A stretch of DNA of 64,000 nucleotides from the sequence record OL631479.1. The stretch is one strand, 5' to 3'. The stretch comes from Escherichia phage ECML-10. How positions within the stretch are numbered: the stretch's first letter is position 1; the number at the start of each line of letters is the position of its first letter. Below are positions 32,606 through 63,989 of this stretch, in pieces. The notes beneath the pieces were generated by a model. That model did no database searches. It saw only the letters and a program-made list of their open reading frames with translations, and was not told the origin of the DNA. Both the position numbers and the translations under genes were made by a program.

Positions 32606-34030
32606 TAAGTTCTTCTCTTTTCTTTTACCGAGTAATTCGGGTTTTCTGTTCTCTTCGGTTTGAAGGGGTATGGAGATACACCTGAGTGAACAGGGTGAAC
32701 AACCGAACATTTGGCTATGGCATTAGCATGGCGAAGCGGACGGGTGACGAAAGAGGGGCCGGAGGACACCAGTCACTGCCATATGATATATGGGTGATAA
32801 CCTGAAGAGTCTGAATAAGTGTTTAAGTACCAGTCAGAGGAAAAGGTGAATGGTAGCCGAAGGGGGAGGGGGTTTCTTGTATCTTTAATTTGTATATTAT
32901 GTATACATTCGTAAACCAATCTCATCTGAATCTGTTTACCACACAAAGTGGATAGAGACAAATATTACCTATTAAACTTGAATTATTTATAGAAAATACT
33001 ACAACACTACTTAAGTATTTGATTTTACACACAAATCCTGCAGATATTCACCCCCCATATTTAACATACTTGTAACATATTCCATACTCTACCTGACCGA
33101 TCAACTCACCCAACTACATCCTCCATATTTCCCCTGTCTGTACTACCCCTGCCCAGCCGGGAGTCCCGTCATATCTGGCTTTCCAGCAAATATCACACCC
33201 ACAAATATCATTGCCTGAAGAGGGTTTCATCCCATAATACATGCCTTACCTGAAGAGCGCTTCATATACCCCGTAAATTTTTTAATTGACACCCTCCCCG
33301 CCGCCGGAGGGGGTTGGCTTTTCCCACACAGACCCGAAGAGCCAGCCAGAAATATCTGAACAGGTCCAGCTATGCCACGATTTTGACCTGACCTACAGGA
33401 GTGCTTCCCTGTCAGGAGCCGGTAGCGACTGGAGTGCTGCCAGGCGGACGAAATGGGAATACTTCTCATTCTTATAATAATTCTCAAATATCGAGGCAGT
33501 GAGGCAAATTAATAGGTGAGGCCGTTCACACAGTGGCACAACATTTGCAACCTATCTTGTGTGGGGGAATGAGAATACCTATCATTGTGAGAATAGTTAT
33601 CATTACGGGCAATTTAACATAATACCCATTATGCGCACCACTGGCGATCCATACAGGGATTGATAACATGAGTTACTGTTTATGCATATAACAATTATAT
33701 TTCTTACTATTTGTGTGGGATATAGTTAGCAGCCAATAGATTAGATATTGACCTGTAGACTTCTGACCGTCCAGACGTCTAAACGCCCACACAACAAGGC
33801 TTATACATACATCGCTGAATGTAAACAGGGCCGCAAAAATGCTACCATACCAGATTGTAAATTTTTCATACAGCACTTGACAAAGAGGAGAAAAACTTGT
33901 CTGACACTTTAGACACAATAGTGACATAATGGTGACACACTGGGCATACTCAACACACTGGATACAATAACAGTTGTTACTATTGCATGCTTCACTGTTC
34001 ACGTATAGATTGTTTACACAGAGATGATAA

Positions 34031-35571: not shown

Positions 35572-35782
35572 AATGTTTTCCTCTCTTCTGGTTGTTGTGT
35601 GGGCACTTTTGCCCCTTCAAGATAAATGTTACCCCACCACCTGGCAGATGTCAACGGTTTTTATAGTTCTTATATGACAGGCAGGCCCGGTGATTGTCTC
35701 CCCCCGTCGCCAGGTGCCTGCCGTGTAATAAGTATAACAAAAAACAGGACCATTGCAAGCCCTGTTTTCTAGTTAATAAGGA

Positions 35783-37096: not shown

Positions 37097-37172
37097 GATT
37101 TTTATCCTCTTTGTGGTTGGTGGGGCTTGTTGCCCCCATTTGATTTATATATTACAGTCTTATATGGTCATG

Positions 37173-37406
37173 TCAACTATTTTCAAAAAATTTTTCTGCT
37201 GTGATATTTTTCCCGGTAGGGTTCGCTACTTTTAAAATTCTATCATGCACCGGACGCCCGAAAGAATAAGATCCGTATACAGTAAACCAATAATTGCCGT
37301 CAGGCTGTACTATTACCGTCGCATATGGTACGCCTTTTTCGTTTTTGCTGACAAAATAGATCACATTGCCATTAATAGCCTCGGCGCGTTTAATTTGTTC
37401 CATCAT
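37173..37406 (-). CDS. hypothetical protein
   Basis: AGGTGA RBS; 77 aa. Confidence 0.45.
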   Translation of the reverse strand: MMEQIKRAEAINGNVIYFVSKNEKGVPYATVIVQPDGNYWFTVYGSYSFGRPVHDRILKVANPTGKNITAEKFFENS

Positions 37407-38279: not shown

Positions 38280-38324
38280 GTTTATCACTCCTTGTTAACT
38301 GCGTGTTATTTTTACCACGATTAA

Positions 38325-38376
38325 AATTTACTTTACTGATGGCCCTGGCGTCAAGGCCATCTAAAAATAAATTTAC
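38325..38376. repeat. conserved ~50-bp intergenic stem-loop element, copy 1
   Basis: TTTACTTTACTGATGGCCCTGGCGTCAAGGCCATCTAAAAATAAATTTAC; 7-bp stem GATGGCC/GGCCATC. Confidence 0.7.
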
Positions 38377-41243: not shown

Positions 41244-41317
41244 TACTTTCTCCTTTCATTGTGTTGATAAACTATCTTTATAGATGGCCCTGCTACCAGG
41301 ACCACCGAAAAACCAGC

Positions 41318-41563
41318 TTATTTGACGATACCGACAAAACAGATCCCGCCTTCCCCTATATAGGCAATATCGGTAATTTGATAATTTGTCAAGATCCGCG
41401 TGTTCAGATCATTAATAAAATCGGTCATCGCGTTGGTGTAGTTGTCTTCCGTGTCTAAGGCATAATCCCAGGTGTAAACCTTTTTACGTCCGAAGCCTTT
41501 TACCATGATACGGGCGCTTTTGGTGTTGGTAGGGGCATAATATTTGGTGATTAGTGCTGCCAT
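41318..41563 (-). CDS. hypothetical protein
   Basis: ATAGGAG RBS; 81 aa. Confidence 0.45.
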   Translation of the reverse strand: MAALITKYYAPTNTKSARIMVKGFGRKKVYTWDYALDTEDNYTNAMTDFINDLNTRILTNYQITDIAYIGEGGICFVGIVK

Positions 41564-41604
41564 GGTTTTAACTCCTATGCATTAGTTCAGTGTTAACAGT
41601 ATAA

Positions 41605-41656
41605 CGTTTACTTTATTGATGGCCCTGGAGTCAAGGCCATCTAAAAATAAATTTAC
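41605..41656. repeat. conserved ~50-bp intergenic stem-loop element, copy 2
   Basis: TTTACTTTATTGATGGCCCTGGAGTCAAGGCCATCTAAAAATAAATTTAC. Confidence 0.7.
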
Positions 41657-42073: not shown

Positions 42074-42193
42074 TTAAAAATTTAAGAAAAATTTTGCAAA
42101 ACTGTTAGCGCTACTCATTAACATTTGCGCCAGGATGTAACCGACAACGCAAACGATAATAGTTATCTTTGTGTATTGGCGTGTAGTGCTCAT
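42074..42193 (-). CDS. small hydrophobic peptide (39 aa)
   Basis: ATG after AAAAAGGGGG; TM-like ITIIVCVVGYILAQMLM; not in the 60-aa ORF track. Confidence 0.35.
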   Translation of the reverse strand: MSTTRQYTKITIIVCVVGYILAQMLMSSANSFAKFFLNF

Positions 42194-42225
42194 CTTAAAG
42201 CCCCCTTTTTCGCTTAGTTGAGATT

Positions 42226-42276
42226 AGTTTACTTTATTGAAGGCCCTGGAGTCAAGGCCATCTAAAAATAAACTTA
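42226..42276. repeat. conserved ~50-bp intergenic stem-loop element, copy 3
   Basis: TTTACTTTATTGAAGGCCCTGGAGTCAAGGCCATCTAAAAATAAACTTAG. Confidence 0.7.
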
Positions 42277-42678
42277 GTAAGTTTTCAGTACTTTACCGTC
42301 CAACCTGTCAAGCTGGATCTCGATAGCTGCAGAAAACCTATTGTAAACCACATCGCCCATAGAATCCAACCAGTCTATGACATTATACACTTGCTCTTTG
42401 TTCTTGCAGGTCCGGATCCGTTTCATGATGTAAGCCGGATCAATATTGGTACTCTCGTTGGTGTTCCCCTGTACCTGGTTTGCCGTATTAGTTACATCTT
42501 TAATGGCCTTTACCACCACCTGGAATGGCTTTAAGGTGCCTTTTGCGTTCATCTCACGCGCTTTTGCGGCGCGGTTGTTATATGTTACACAACGGCGGCA
42601 AATGTTGACCAAATGCATGTCAATAATTTTTTCATCGTTTGCCAGTTCGTTCATGATGCGGCGTACGTTCTTATTCAT
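42274..42678 (-). CDS. hypothetical protein
   Basis: CAGAGGAAAAGCT RBS; 134 aa. Confidence 0.5.
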   Translation of the reverse strand: MNKNVRRIMNELANDEKIIDMHLVNICRRCVTYNNRAAKAREMNAKGTLKPFQVVVKAIKDVTNTANQVQGNTNESTNIDPAYIMKRIRTCKNKEQVYNVIDWLDSMGDVVYNRFSAAIEIQLDRLDGKVLKTY

Positions 42679-43497: not shown

Positions 43498-43657
43498 TCA
43501 ACCATTAGTTAAAATTATTTTTGCCCCTGCCAGGTTAACCATCATTTTTTCGTACTCTTCTTTATGTTCCAACGCTCCCGCCATAGCCTTTTCAACCAGG
43601 GCGATAGCCTCAGCGTCATTAATAGCTACATTTTCCAGGGGGATTATATTACCTTTC
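43498..43657 (-). CDS. hypothetical small protein (53 aa)
   Basis: ATG after GGAGGTACAAAA; not in the 60-aa ORF track. Confidence 0.4.
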
Positions 43658-43818
43658 ATTTTTGTACCTCCCCTTCAATTGTTACCTATCCTATAGCATA
43701 GGCCCACCAGGTTTACAAGCCTTCATTCTCTCCTGCCTGGTCAGTTAGGTCCTGCCAGGCTGGCCCCGCCAGGTTGCAGCGGTTAGCGCATCAGGTTAGA
43801 AAAATTTTTTGAAAAGTG

Positions 43819-43950
43819 TTGACAGCGGCCCCGCCAGGTGGCACAATATACCTATCGAAAGGACGGCAGGCACCGGTGACGGGGGAGACAACCACCGGGG
43901 ATGGGCGCTGCATAAAATGAGAACGGTTATCATTATCATTTAAAAATTTA
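43819..43950 (+). ncRNA. candidate small RNA unit 1 (promoter plus ~90-nt structured transcript)
   Basis: AT-rich UP-like tract, TTGACA-17 nt-CACAAT, then CCGGUG stem with loop containing GGGAGACAAC, ending GAGAACGGTTATCATTATCATTT; no ORF. Confidence 0.35.
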
Positions 43951-43961
43951 TGCAAAAAATC

Positions 43962-44075
43962 CTTGCTTTCTTTGTCCTGTGTGATACTATAATAACAAGC
44001 CGGGGCAACAGGGGCCGGGAGACAATCACCGGGCCTGCCCGTTATTCTGCAAACGAGAATGATTATCATTCAAAA
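43962..44075 (+). ncRNA. candidate small RNA unit 2 (paralog of unit 1)
   Basis: TATAAT at 43988, then GGGAGACAATCACCGGG and GAGAATGATTATCATT, homologous to unit 1. Confidence 0.35.
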
Positions 44076-44179
44076 TTCTAAATGAGAACTCCTCGCATTT
44101 AATAAATTTAATTAGCATGCTAATTACCCTCCGTAACAATTTCCTATAAAACAGTATCCCATAAAATATTCCCATATAG

Positions 44180-44640
44180 AAATTTTAAAAATCCATTTCT
44201 GAAAACGAAAAATCGATTTCGTCCCCAAAAATTTCAGGTCGAGATCCGGAACGATTTCCAGAAAATCCGATTCAGAAAACGAAAAACAGATCGAGTACTG
44301 AGAAATTTATCGAGAAAAATTTTCAGAAAATCCAAGCCATGAAATGAAAAGTAGATCGAGTACTTGGAAAGCTGCACCGCAACTTCAAGATAGTGGTTAG
44401 ATTGTTACCATAGAAGGTTAAGGGCAAGTGGAGGAAGTTCTAGTAGAGGGAGGTTAGCATGTGTGGGAAATCTATAATGGTGGCCTGGAATATGGTGCAA
44501 ACGATAGGATGAGTTATTCAGCTTGTCGCGCCTACTCTGAAAAATCCATTTTAGTTTTCGATCCATTTTCTGATTTTCTAAGAATTTTAAAATATCCAGC
44601 CCGGTGAAATATCAAAAGGAGGAAATCCATTTTAGAAATC
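44180..44640. repeat. iteron-like degenerate direct-repeat region
   Basis: repeated CAGAAAATCC(R)ATT, GAAAACGAAAAA and AGATCGAGTACT motifs in an AT-rich ORF-free stretch. Confidence 0.6.
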
Positions 44641-44675
44641 CCCCTTACACTTGATATGCCAGGAATTTTCAAGTA

Positions 44676-50529: not shown

Positions 50530-50775
50530 TTAGCCAATCACTTCGAAAGTTCCCCAATTCCCGTCCAGCAGGCAGGTGATCGGATCCCCATCGTCGTCAA
50601 AGATTTCAAAGTTTTCAGCATCCAGGATGTGGCCCTCGAACACAATACTTTCGTCGCCACCACCAGAGATAACAGCGTATTCCTTACCTTGTGTCAAGTT
50701 TTGACACCCTTTGCCACCAAAACCTACTTCAACACAACGTACTTTCTGTCCTGCGCGAGCAACTACTTCAGCCAT
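50530..50775 (-). CDS. hypothetical protein
   Basis: CAGGAGACC RBS; 81 aa. Confidence 0.45.
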   Translation of the reverse strand: MAEVVARAGQKVRCVEVGFGGKGCQNLTQGKEYAVISGGGDESIVFEGHILDAENFEIFDDDGDPITCLLDGNWGTFEVIG

Positions 50776-50792
50776 CTTAAGGTCTCCTGATA

Positions 50793-51095
50793 TTAATCGT
50801 CAAGTTCAAAATAGATTTTAACAGCTTCATCAAAGATTGGAATCCCGATGTTGTTGATAAGCTGCCAAACTACCATATCTTTACCGGGGTCTGGGAGAAT
50901 GTCAACCTTTCTCCATGCGCTGTATATCCAGTTCGGACCACCTTCTGCACTAACTGGCAGATTTTCACCAGCCTCCTGCAGATACTTATACAGCAAAAGA
51001 TATTCTGGATACTCTAGAACACTGTCCTCTGTAGTGTATAGCAGTTCACGGTATACTTTTAAGAACCCTGCGGGGGTGATGTTTTCAGTCTTCAT
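50793..51095 (-). CDS. hypothetical protein
   Basis: start at MKTENITP after AGGAGAGG. Confidence 0.45.
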   Translation of the reverse strand: MKTENITPAGFLKVYRELLYTTEDSVLEYPEYLLLYKYLQEAGENLPVSAEGGPNWIYSAWRKVDILPDPGKDMVVWQLINNIGIPIFDEAVKIYFELDD

Positions 51096-62784: not shown

Positions 62785-63989
62785 TACGCCTCCTCGTAAA
62801 GAATGTCGATAGTGTTACCGTCACGATCAACTACATATTCAATAGGGTCTCCATCTTTGCGTGCTTCCGGAGCTACCACAATCTCATAGCGGCATGCACG
62901 GCACTTAGCGCTATTGTGTTGATATGGCACACTAACTACATCTGCAGGGTCAACCATGACAGTCATTACAGTGCCGTAGCTCTTTGCATACTCTTTGCTG
63001 GCGCAGTGTAAGCCATAGGAGCACGCAGCTTCAGGATCATCCTCTACAAAGTTACGAGGCATGGATACAAAAGCACCTTGGTATTGTGGGACTTTACCAC
63101 TGTGCCAATCCACCCACTTGCTGCCGTTAAACTGAACCCCTTTGTAGCAAATGATTCGACCATCTTCTGCAATCTGAATATCATTGGCCTGCATAAAATC
63201 GTAGAGCATGTTTACAGATTTTGCAGAAGGATTGCGTAGCAGGCGAACGAGGAATTTCACATAGCGGTCATCCAGCGTTCCGTCTGCATAATCTTTCTCA
63301 ATTTTCTTTGCAATGGTGGATCGCATCTCTACACCGTAGTAGTAGAGCTTACCATCTTTCATGATCAGGTTGTCTGCAAGTGTGGTGAACTCATTCTTGC
63401 GTTCCAGCCAGACAAGGATTTCACCAATTGCCTCATCATATTCCTGAACAGAGATATGGTCGAAGACTTTCTGGTAAATTTCCTCACTTTCGCTGCGGCG
63501 AATTTCAAAAATTCCTTCGTTGCAGGTGATCTGGAGGAGTTCCCCGCAAATAACTACCAAAGGCTCGATGCTTCGAGTCTGTTGCTGAGACACACTGCTC
63601 ACCACTTCCAGCACCGGATCTTTGACTTCTACTAAAGGTTCTTCTGACTTGATTGCTACCCCAGTAAACCCCACACCGTGAACAACACACAGTGGGTATA
63701 CCACGACCCAACGTTTAACGGAACCTTCGCCTAAGTCTAAGATCATGGCGTACTTACCGTTATCTTCCAGCCCATATCTAAATAAACGGGCCTCTTCACG
63801 GGTTTCAAAATCCTCACGGGTGTAGCAGACGCTGTCACGGTCAGGATCGAACAACTCTGGGGCACCAACTGCCAGTGTCCAGGTTGTGTCGCCTTTCTCA
63901 ATGGCACATGTGAAACCCTTCTTCTCAAGTTCTGCACGGCGGTCACGTGCTTCTTTACGAGTTTTGAAATGTTCGTAGATGAAAATCAT
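62784..63989 (-). CDS. hypothetical protein with tandem N-terminal repeats
   Basis: 401 aa; two similar ~45-aa N-terminal units (FKTRKEARDRRAELEKKGF... / FETREEARLFRYGLEDNGK...). Confidence 0.45.
   Translation of the reverse strand: MIFIYEHFKTRKEARDRRAELEKKGFTCAIEKGDTTWTLAVGAPELFDPDRDSVCYTREDFETREEARLFRYGLEDNGKYAMILDLGEGSVKRWVVVYPLCVVHGVGFTGVAIKSEEPLVEVKDPVLEVVSSVSQQQTRSIEPLVVICGELLQITCNEGIFEIRRSESEEIYQKVFDHISVQEYDEAIGEILVWLERKNEFTTLADNLIMKDGKLYYYGVEMRSTIAKKIEKDYADGTLDDRYVKFLVRLLRNPSAKSVNMLYDFMQANDIQIAEDGRIICYKGVQFNGSKWVDWHSGKVPQYQGAFVSMPRNFVEDDPEAACSYGLHCASKEYAKSYGTVMTVMVDPADVVSVPYQHNSAKCRACRYEIVVAPEARKDGDPIEYVVDRDGNTIDILYEEA

Follow-up and report, generated by a model that had tools for sequence, protein, structure and literature searches.

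A conserved promoter-proximal element followed by predicted Fur operators in a gene-free region of Vequintavirus phages

Introduction

At the primary origin of phage T7, an A+T-rich segment comes after two promoters in tandem, phi1.1A and phi1.1B; R-loops at T4 oriF and oriG and RNA II of ColE1 are further cases of priming by a transcript. In T4, the stable RNAs species 1 and 2 (rnaC and rnaD) are encoded within the tRNA cluster and mature by processing of tRNA precursors. In P22, the boxB loop contains the motif GACAA. Promoter early stem-loop (PeSL) cassettes of T4-type phages are thought to mediate modular shuffling. Here, we describe a locus at positions 43819-44075 of a 64-kb stretch of DNA (64,000 nucleotides [nt], referred to below as the window) from Escherichia phage ECML-10 (OL631479.1). 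At this locus, two tandem units each combine a promoter-like sequence, a G+C-rich element that we call U, and a box that matches the consensus binding site of the host repressor Fur.

A 2-kb region of the locus is 94 to 97% identical to many Vequintavirus (rV5-like) phages of Escherichia coli, with genomes of ∼137 kb and JES2013 as the best match; on this identity, the source of the window is an rV5-like Vequintavirus. In annotated relatives, all genes for several kilobases on both sides of 43819-44075 are on the minus strand. Both units lie in a gap of ∼1 kb without a credible gene (∼43680-44670), amid leftward early genes. Can a region of this kind, with promoters that fire against the surrounding genes, serve as a control site for the phage genome?

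Results

Two tandem units share a conserved core and a third copy lies among the early genes

A preliminary description of the window, made from its letters, had placed two homologous promoter-plus-element units at 43819-44075, and all of the features were found at these positions. The shared core segment and the 3' box that it had seen in both units were confirmed as well; a third copy of the core, at 35686-35702, had been overlooked. The features are as follows (Fur boxes were scored by a simple match count against AATGAKAATnATTMTCATT, out of 18):

43797-43847, plus strand: promoter P1 (promoter scan), the A/T-rich UP-like tract AGAAAAATTTTTTGAAAAGTG and then TTGACA-17-CACAAT (43819-43847)
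43854-43912, plus strand: U1, a G+C-rich promoter-proximal element with core GGGAGACAACCACCGGG at 43883-43899 (repeat search, folding)
43916-43940: Fur box 1, predicted from its consensus score, two overlapping sites AATGAGAACGGTTATCATT and AACGGTTATCATTATCATT
43963-43993, plus strand: promoter P2 (sequence read), TTGCTT (43963-43968) plus a -10
43997-44049, plus strand: U2, a G+C-rich promoter-proximal element with core GGGAGACAATCACCGGG at 44017-44033, ending in TGCCCGTTATTCTG (repeat search)
44052-44070: predicted Fur box 2, AACGAGAATGATTATCATT, 17/18, with a perfect inner palindrome, GAATGAT-T-ATCATTC
44081-44099: weaker Fur-like box 3, AATGAGAACTCCTCGCATT, 14/18, placed 29 bp past box 2 in the phasing of the arrays of other genera
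44100 to 44170-44200: A+T-rich stretch of ∼100 bp with 25 to 29% G+C (G+C profile)
44170-44370: three direct repeats (iterons, family D2) of ∼62 nt, 74 and 65 nt apart, with core GAAAAyGAAAA..GATCGAGTAC
35626-35758, minus strand: U3 cassette, with TTGCAA-16-TATACT (35758-35731), the core (35702-35686), and a second promoter, TTGACA-17-TAACAT (35654-35626)

The 17-mer GGGAGACAAYCACCGGG is common to the three cores (43883-43899, 44017-44033, and 35686-35702 on the minus strand); these three occurrences compare with 0.10 expected, and none of 100 shuffles reached three. The element spans ∼50 nt around the core G-AGACAA-N-CACCG-N4-TG, and nine columns are invariant among 22 distinct homologues (G-AGACAA-N-CAC-G-N4-TG). 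Unit 2 and its box are 70 to 88% identical, and U2 itself 72 to 88%, in the genera Seunavirus, Certrevirus, Mydovirus, and Phapecoctavirus, where the gap that holds the homologue is always between oppositely oriented genes. The core is present also in Nankokuvirus phages of Pseudomonas (PAK_P3, CHA_P1, and Ab03). By manual count, an E. coli Phapecoctavirus and the Pseudomonas phage PAK_P3 agree at ∼24 of 25 nt round the core. Each genome carries two to three copies of U, and 5,426 E. coli genomes gave no match to it, that is, no host homologue.

The preliminary description had the units antisense to all of their neighbors. This holds for both units and is not general, since U3 and a second copy in Certrevirus have the same sense as the genes. 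U3 is oriented with the leftward genes in an intergenic region of the early cluster, has no Fur box, and precedes two genes and then a terminator (34953-34937); a terminator-like hairpin overlaps its -35. The second Certrevirus copy also occupies an early-cluster intergenic region and is accompanied by a Fur box. The 5' half of U1 resembles U3 and its 3' half resembles the U1 of relative L076, so that U1 is mosaic in appearance.

In Phapecoctavirus, Seunavirus, Certrevirus, and Mydovirus, the slot of unit 1 is occupied by a different element of ∼100 nt, element X:

L003 1385-1470, L004 1340-1430, L005 1325-1415, L006 1315-1405: element X, highly conserved

Element X (..GCCACCCCACGGCGAAAAGGCGGGGCTAAC..GGTCGGAAGGTGGATCGCCGGTAG) has its own promoter and a variable hairpin, for which RNAalifold gave -19.8 kcal/mol with 18 pairs and one compensatory pair. 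It had no match in Rfam and is absent from the window. Because this slot holds X in the other genera, the pair of homologous units is a duplication specific to Vequintavirus.

Several readings of U itself were set aside. Leaderless open reading frames (ORFs) on the plus strand were rejected: L003 and L004 read through the core in different frames, and U is therefore not coding. Resemblances within U to ops, sigma54, rrn boxA, and Pho-box sequences were partial and, by eye, not conserved over the homologues. The pseudo-ToxI of phiTE, a non-coding RNA of a Certrevirus, adjoins tRNA genes in another region and is not homologous.

A sigma70-like sequence precedes U within a narrow range of distances

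P1 scored 10/12 in the promoter scan, with a TG preceding its -10, and it fits the early-promoter consensus of Certrevirus, AAAA(N3)TGTTGAC (PMC7344957). For P2, the -10 may be either TGaTACTAT (43985-43990, spacer of 16) or TATAAT (43988-43993, spacer of 19). The positions of the P2 -35 and -10 are kept across other genera while the spacer sequence varies. When the -10 was required to end 26 to 41 nt 5' of the core, a sigma70 match of at least 9/12 was found at 21 of 24 distinct U copies, versus 6% of random windows. As a promoter match lies 5' of U in this range and the hexamer positions are kept while the spacers differ, U appears to open a transcription unit in every lineage. We consider it very probable that P1 and P2 are early-type host promoters.

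Two observations concern the DNA upstream of these promoters. The P1 tract, together with its -35, shows 93% complementarity to a sequence at 37171-37197, within the leftward gene cluster. In the non-Vequintavirus genera (L003 to L006), a direct repeat, TGTAAAGA-N3-TGTAAAGA, is conserved just 5' of the P2 -35; it is absent from the window and may be an activator or UP-type site.

The 3' box matches the Fur consensus

The 3' box of the two units had been noted twice more near 33569-33607, and we confirmed it there as GAGAAnnnTTATCATT at 33571 and 33589. With the copies at 43919 and 44055, the window holds four, versus 0.28 expected, and none of 100 shuffles reached four. GAGAAnnnTTATCATT is a piece of a longer 19-bp palindrome of the 9-1-9 type. 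The full palindrome, AATGAGAATnATTCTCATT, was seen in other genera, in which the homologous boxes reach 18/18. In the window, the two sites of box 1 match 16/18 and 15/18 of the Fur 9-1-9 consensus and 15/19 of the E. coli 19-mer. Seven window sites scored at least 15/18, versus 0.3 expected, and they lie at 33.45-33.6 kb, 42.15 kb, and 43.9-44.1 kb; those of the seven that were read in the sequence or set against the ORF list are non-coding. The first of these groups is

33452-33604: predicted Fur-box cluster in the central non-coding region, with boxes at 33452, 33568, and 33586 scoring 16, 16, and 15 of 18

The boxes keep a fixed register with U. Box 1 starts 30 nt past the U1 core and ends 23 bp 5' of the P2 -35, and box 2 starts 32 nt past the U2 core, as in nearly all homologues. 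In nearly every enterobacterial U copy, the first box lies 30 to 34 nt past the core, and further boxes follow in 29-bp steps (offsets 32, 61, 90, and 119/128), for a total of one to five boxes per locus.

Where else does this palindrome occur? In a scan of one genome per species, exact AATGAGAATnATTCTCATT was found in at least 120 bacterial contigs of very different phyla. The sampled loci placed it next to FecI-type sigma factors, a TonB-receptor plug, Peripla_BP_2, a siderophore-type ABC ATPase, an Fe3+-type binding protein, a ZnuA-type protein, an Fe2+ transporter, FeoA, and Fur itself. The same sequence has been published as the Fur consensus of Xanthomonas, and it closely resembles the consensus of Shewanella and Bacillus (PMC1790865). 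Within the 24-kb ent/fep cluster of E. coli K-12, matches of 13 or more were almost confined to three intergenic regions known to be controlled by Fur; by the same metric, the fepA-fes, fepD-entS, and fepB-entC operators scored 14 to 15 of 18, versus 15 to 17 of 18 for the phage sites. These comparisons make it very likely that Fur should recognize and bind the boxes. The preliminary description had offered a protein-binding regulatory module as its fallback, and for the 3' box, now recognizable as a consensus Fur site, that was the right choice.

The exact palindrome was also present in at least 120 viral contigs of many sizes in IMG/VR, where ∼1 match would be expected by chance (estimated from how often an earlier pattern was hit by chance and from the size of the collection), and often in tandem arrays (L172, L136, L163, and L196). 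On this excess, phage use of Fur sites seems widespread. A number of unrelated viral contigs (L084, L114, L134, L155, L158, L184, L189, and others) have a cassette in common, composed of TTGACA-N17-(G/T)ATAAAAT, a G+C-rich discriminator (CGGCGCC), the exact Fur palindrome, and often an intrinsic terminator. Several of these cassettes are antisense to the neighboring gene, and the cassette looks like a small transcription unit repressed by Fur. Two further IMG/VR contigs (L132 and L199) have exact Fur palindromes directly next to clustered DnaA boxes (TTATCCACA / TGTGGATAA), suggesting that in other phages or elements Fur sites occur at regions that resemble origins. The literature searched, some of it with this point in mind, describes no Fur boxes in control regions of virulent phages, and the G-centered form of the palindrome was not found in it.

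Two more sites in the window fall outside the tandem units. A lone Fur-like site, AACGATAATAGTTATCTTT (15/18, 42152-42170), lies between two leftward early genes. On the minus strand of 33290-33650, a promoter-like sequence (33647-33619) is followed by two tandem Fur boxes (33604-33568), a third (33470-33452), and a terminator-like hairpin (33311-33292); a Fur-controlled non-coding transcript of ∼320 nt could arise here, in the central convergent region. At the tandem units, a possible weak leftward promoter runs across box 2 (TTGAAT-18-CAGAAT), and its -10 is unconserved in other genera. A small RNA on the minus strand from a promoter overlapped by Fur was rejected because no U-run follows the hairpin in most genera and because the -10 (CAGAAT or CTGAAT) is unconserved, whereas the plus-strand promoters are conserved.

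The module extends into A+T-rich DNA and iterons

P1 and P2 lie in tandem 5' of the stretch of 25 to 29% G+C, as expected of a T7-type origin. The iterons that follow have partly palindromic cores. The iteron block is conserved in other genera, and the core TCGAGTAC recurs in three iterons of the Pseudomonas phages. Outside the Vequintavirus-like phages, matches to the region were limited to two blocks, U2 with its Fur box and the iterons. The order promoter, U, iterons is found in the Pseudomonas phages without Fur boxes, which argues that these three form the conserved core of the module and that the Fur array was inserted, at a fixed register, in the enterobacterial phages.

Are the neighbors conserved along with the module? 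When 16 kb round it was compared with the Pseudomonas loci L015 (12 kb) and L322 (PAK_P3, 3.5 kb), only one protein match was obtained, so that almost none of the flanking proteins is conserved. A conserved neighbor protein was considered as a candidate iteron binder, and none was found between this phage and PAK_P3-type phages.

At the place of the Fur box of the enterobacterial phages, PAK_P3 (KC862299, ∼50780-50800, minus strand) has a near-perfect sigma54-type promoter, TGGCAC-N5-TTGCA; L015 has a sigma54-like promoter with the variant TGGCAT. The host rtcBA operon depends on sigma54 and RtcR. PAK_P3 infection raises this operon ∼80-fold.

Hi-C maps of PAK_P3 show a 14-kb early region folded as a hairpin, with two gene-free sequences at the tip. 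The PAK_P3 genome has exactly two gene-free gaps longer than 300 bp in the interval from 45 to 75 kb, and the U module (50571-51080) is one of them. The other, 62818-63738, contains at least six copies of ATTGTGTAAC-type repeats in both orientations and may be the partner Hi-C anchor or some other cis-acting site. It is possible, from the gene maps rather than from published coordinates or a statement of the authors, that the U module is one of the PAK_P3 Hi-C anchors.

A Fur-gated control region is the preferred reading

With a rough probability of 0.35, we favor a reading in which Fur gates the transcription that enters a cis-acting control region; this region would most likely be an origin activated by transcription or a locus that organizes the genome. 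Four lines point to it: the tandem promoters, the A+T-rich DNA with iterons, deep conservation that is independent of the neighbors, and the possible Hi-C anchor. Each cassette would comprise a host sigma70 promoter, U, and one or more 19-bp Fur operators. The two cassettes would fire rightward, against the leftward early genes, into the A+T-rich ∼100 bp and then the three iterons. Fur-Fe2+ on the phased boxes would act as an operator or roadblock that decides whether, and how far, P1 and P2 transcripts enter the region. The G-rich U transcript, or a hairpin of the displaced non-template strand, may help to form or process a priming RNA-DNA structure. By analogy, the whole 1-kb gap would be a cis-acting control region resembling the T7 primary origin. 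The sequences themselves show the motifs and their conservation, the fixed link of promoter and U, the identity of the box with the Fur consensus, and the non-coding nature of the annotated minus-strand ORF; from these we infer that Fur binds in vivo, that the promoters are active, that the region works as an origin, and in which direction iron acts.

Several points weigh against this reading. Fur binding, transcription, and replication initiation at the locus are all predictions from sequence. The gap has no DnaA boxes, consensus sites for integration host factor (IHF), or GATC excess, and no recognizable initiator gene is next to it, the neighboring proteins being uncharacterized. Counted from the predicted starts of P1 and P2, the Fur boxes stand at about +50 to +110, not at the classical position of repression that overlaps the promoter. 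U3 and the second Certrevirus copy have the sense of the genes and lie 5' of ordinary early genes with no iterons nearby; for them, a general leader or regulatory cassette fits better than an origin-specific part. Finally, the authors of the PAK_P3 Hi-C study term the gene-free tip sequences "devoid of transcription"; if a tip sequence is the module, this weighs against strong transcription through it, at least in PAK_P3.

In rV5, an origin could not be located; that genome encodes a T7 gp4-like primase-helicase (gp4, gene 4 protein), its map shows a non-coding box, and its skew changes track gene orientation (PMC3606486). Skew changes in the window track gene orientation in the same way. An extended version of the control-region reading, in which phages take Fur as a built-in sensor or target, with an iron-gated, transcription-primed origin or folding anchor whose arrays also titrate Fur as the genome multiplies, in rV5-like and in unrelated uncultivated phages alike, appears to us improbable.

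Could the units encode trans-acting small RNAs?

Under this alternative, P1 and P2 would each give an abundant RNA of ∼50 to 90 nt, with a conserved loop, GAGACAAUCACC, that recognizes a conserved host or phage target by pairing or binding. Its 3' ends would come from processing or from a Fur roadblock, and the link to iron would be akin to that of RyhB or PrrF1/PrrF2. The promoters, strong, conserved, and immediately upstream, are what this model needs. U is non-coding, with frames that differ between L003 and L004, and element X with its own promoter in the neighboring slot of other genera suggests that the locus hosts non-coding transcription units. Also in its favor are the many unrelated viral contigs with cassettes of promoter, Fur box, and terminator.

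The folding data cut both ways. Every copy can form a hairpin with the conserved core in the loop; U1 has a minimum free energy of -20.1 kcal/mol (z = -2.3 versus dinucleotide shuffles), and the three window copies fold at z = -2.1 to -2.7. Over the 22 homologues, however, the mean z was only -1.3 on the plus strand (-0.75 on the minus strand), and MAFFT plus RNAalifold, a check of the kind that the preliminary description had proposed, gave no consensus fold. In ten copies from Seunavirus, Certrevirus, Mydovirus, and Phapecoctavirus, a terminal helix joins the predicted 5' end to the sequence that directly precedes the Fur box; this helix is 95% paired and includes one compensatory pair. It was recovered on the plus strand only, owing to its many G-U pairs, which counts for an RNA. 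Its covariation was not significant, the observed value being reached by 129 of 500 shuffles, and in L026 natural variants of U2 disrupt the inner stem with no compensation. Thus, the constraint on U sequence is clear and a constraint on structure is unproven; a plus-strand helix that tolerates G-U pairs would fit an RNA and a displaced non-template DNA strand alike.

Transcript ends, targets, and families were searched for as well. Between 43000 and 45200, the plus strand has no terminator-like site, and none follows either unit. No complementary target for U was found in the 64-kb window at up to three mismatches, and the E. coli genomes gave no match to U. Rfam searches (the whole window at the gathering threshold, the gap at E up to 5, and four related loci) returned nothing relevant; the sole match, an Lst thermometer at E = 0.12, was rejected as chance. 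ARAGORN found no tRNA or tmRNA genes in the window. For the related phage PAK_P3, the RNA-seq tables list no small or antisense RNA that contains the core; PAK_P3 sRNA1 and sRNA2 were considered and differ from U in sequence and location. The likeness to the paired stable RNAs of T4-like phages, which the preliminary description had suggested, was not borne out by these searches or by the folding and covariation data. We regard trans-acting small RNAs as unlikely, and as the best placed of the alternatives to Fur-gated entry into a control region.

Fur titration, leader RNA, and a protein-coding gene are less likely

A second alternative is that the phased boxes serve as a sponge that titrates host Fur as phage genomes multiply, with promoters and U having a separate function. 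Host iron uptake would be de-repressed and would feed iron enzymes of the phage, such as ribonucleotide reductase. A single Fur box on a multicopy plasmid suffices to de-repress fhuF::lacZ in the Fur titration assay (FURTA), and the phage sites are equal to or better than the host operators. Arrays of one to five boxes at the fixed 29-bp spacing, two clusters in the window, and exact, often tandem, palindromes in the many viral contigs, far above the ∼1 expected, would all suit a sponge. A sponge has no need of a fixed register, yet the first box keeps its distance from the core in almost every lineage. The Pseudomonas relatives retain the module without a Fur box, there are few boxes per genome, and host transcription may already be impaired when the genome copy number is high. 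We think this explanation rather improbable, somewhat more so than small RNAs.

Less probable again is a cis-acting leader RNA, in which U would be an antitermination signal of the put or nut kind, or a 5' stem-loop that protects against 5'-end-dependent decay, and Fur an independent gate downstream. Consistent with a leader, U always lies within ∼10 nt of the predicted start at early-type promoters, it recurs in two to three copies per genome, and U3 and the second Certrevirus copy head sense transcripts of early genes. Conservation from E. coli to Pseudomonas phages fits a universal partner such as RNA polymerase, and in the Seunavirus and Certrevirus copies the helix starts at the predicted 5' end. 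But no long operons are headed by U; U3 precedes only two genes and a terminator, and U1 and U2 lead into non-coding DNA. Its sequence is strongly and its structure poorly conserved, the opposite of what a simple stabilizing hairpin would show. The small-RNA, sponge, and leader explanations are not mutually exclusive.

One ORF is annotated across the units, so that the segments, described at first as ORF-free, are free of coding sequence rather than of annotation:

43791-44069, minus strand: ORF of 92 amino acids annotated as "hypothetical protein" (JES2013 ORF185; MaxTheCat bas57_0099)

That this ORF is a real gene, with the repeats internal to it, is contradicted, despite its annotation as a coding sequence in JES2013 and MaxTheCat, by two in-frame stops in the 94%-identical relative L053, disruption of the frame in L076 and L016, flat substitutions over codon positions (7/7/5), the lack of a ribosome-binding site preceding the ATG, and conservation in other genera that tracks the promoter, core, and palindrome rather than the reading frame; it is non-coding, an annotation artifact, and a gene here is next to inconceivable.

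Other features of the locus

The left edge of the gap carries

43690-43718, minus strand: leftward sigma70-like promoter candidate, TTGTAA-17-TATAGG (sequence read)

This candidate, we infer, would serve the gene at 43659-43498. Its spacer has CCTGGTGG in common with those of P1 and the 35.6-kb promoter. The heptamer GCCAGGT, part of CCWGG, occurs 15 times in the window versus 6.1 expected; CCWGG sites cluster most densely at 43600-43900. GCCAGGT is repeated 5' of and within the spacer of the U promoter both in the window (43525-43840) and in PAK_P3 (50900-50990).

Four 55-nt repeats (family D1) lie in the leftward early cluster at 38322-38376, 41267-41321, 41602-41656, and 42223-42277. Each has a hairpin (GATGGCCCTGG..CAAGGCCATC) and then an A-rich run, and they probably act as terminators of this cluster.

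We also observed that 16 or 17 unannotated records named "Campylobacter phage" (host C. jejuni) are 95 to 100% identical to this Vequintavirus region; one of them, MG065659 (75.6 kb), is 100% identical across 331 queried bases. These records look mislabeled or contaminated.

Discussion

Our analysis suggests that a virulent phage links a key control region, possibly a replication origin, to the iron status of its host. Virulent phages are usually viewed as running a fixed program; here, predicted operators for a host metal sensor score above the host's own, and their spacing is fixed relative to U, which ranks among the most conserved non-coding elements of the phage. If Fur binds them, iron status would feed directly into early transcription or replication of the phage. 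Infection sites are iron-limited, so this would be relevant to phage therapy. Fur binding would also offer a handle on the replication origin of therapeutic rV5-like, phi92-like, and PAK_P3-like phages. Should the extended version of the reading be true, U would represent a new class of origin or leader element in enterobacterial Vequintavirinae and Stephanstirmvirinae and in Pseudomonas Nankokuvirus. The strategy seems to be widespread, given that at least 120 unrelated viral contigs have the palindrome.

How does the locus compare with the systems outlined at the start? The pair of small non-coding units, found in a coliphage that is large and virulent, recalls the T4 stable RNAs, but here there are no tRNA genes and each unit has its own promoter. 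The tandem, homologous, non-coding units with Fur boxes are reminiscent of RyhB of E. coli and of the tandem PrrF1/PrrF2 of Pseudomonas. Those RNAs have a promoter overlapped by the Fur box and end at a Rho-independent terminator, whereas the box here is 50 to 110 nt past the start and no terminator follows; neither sequence similarity nor an Rfam match connects them to U.

Like the put sites of HK022 and the nut sites of lambda and P22, U is a repeated element just 3' of early promoters with a conserved loop; its loop contains GACAA, as does the boxB loop of P22. At U, no small conserved stem closes a GACAA loop, no long operons follow, and neither an N-like protein nor a sign of antitermination was found. 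Like the PeSL cassettes, U belongs to short cassettes of early promoter and stem-loop between small early genes, with mosaic copies and, at U3, a terminator-like hairpin over the -35. It differs in that the stem-loop is 3' of the promoter, the core is conserved across host genera, and the cassette is coupled to Fur boxes and iterons.

The likeness to iteron origins (lambda ori, P1 oriR, and plasmid oriV) lies in the three or more direct repeats with partly palindromic cores and an A+T-rich neighbor; here, however, there are no DnaA or IHF sites and no adjacent initiator gene, and the repeats are long (∼62 nt) and widely spaced. Like the T7 primary origin, the locus has two tandem promoters directed at a short A+T-rich stretch; the transcript start is G-rich, and the phage encodes a primase-helicase of the T7 gp4 type. 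It departs from T7 in its host sigma70-type promoters, its iterons, and its Fur boxes. The resemblance is one of analogy and not of homology.

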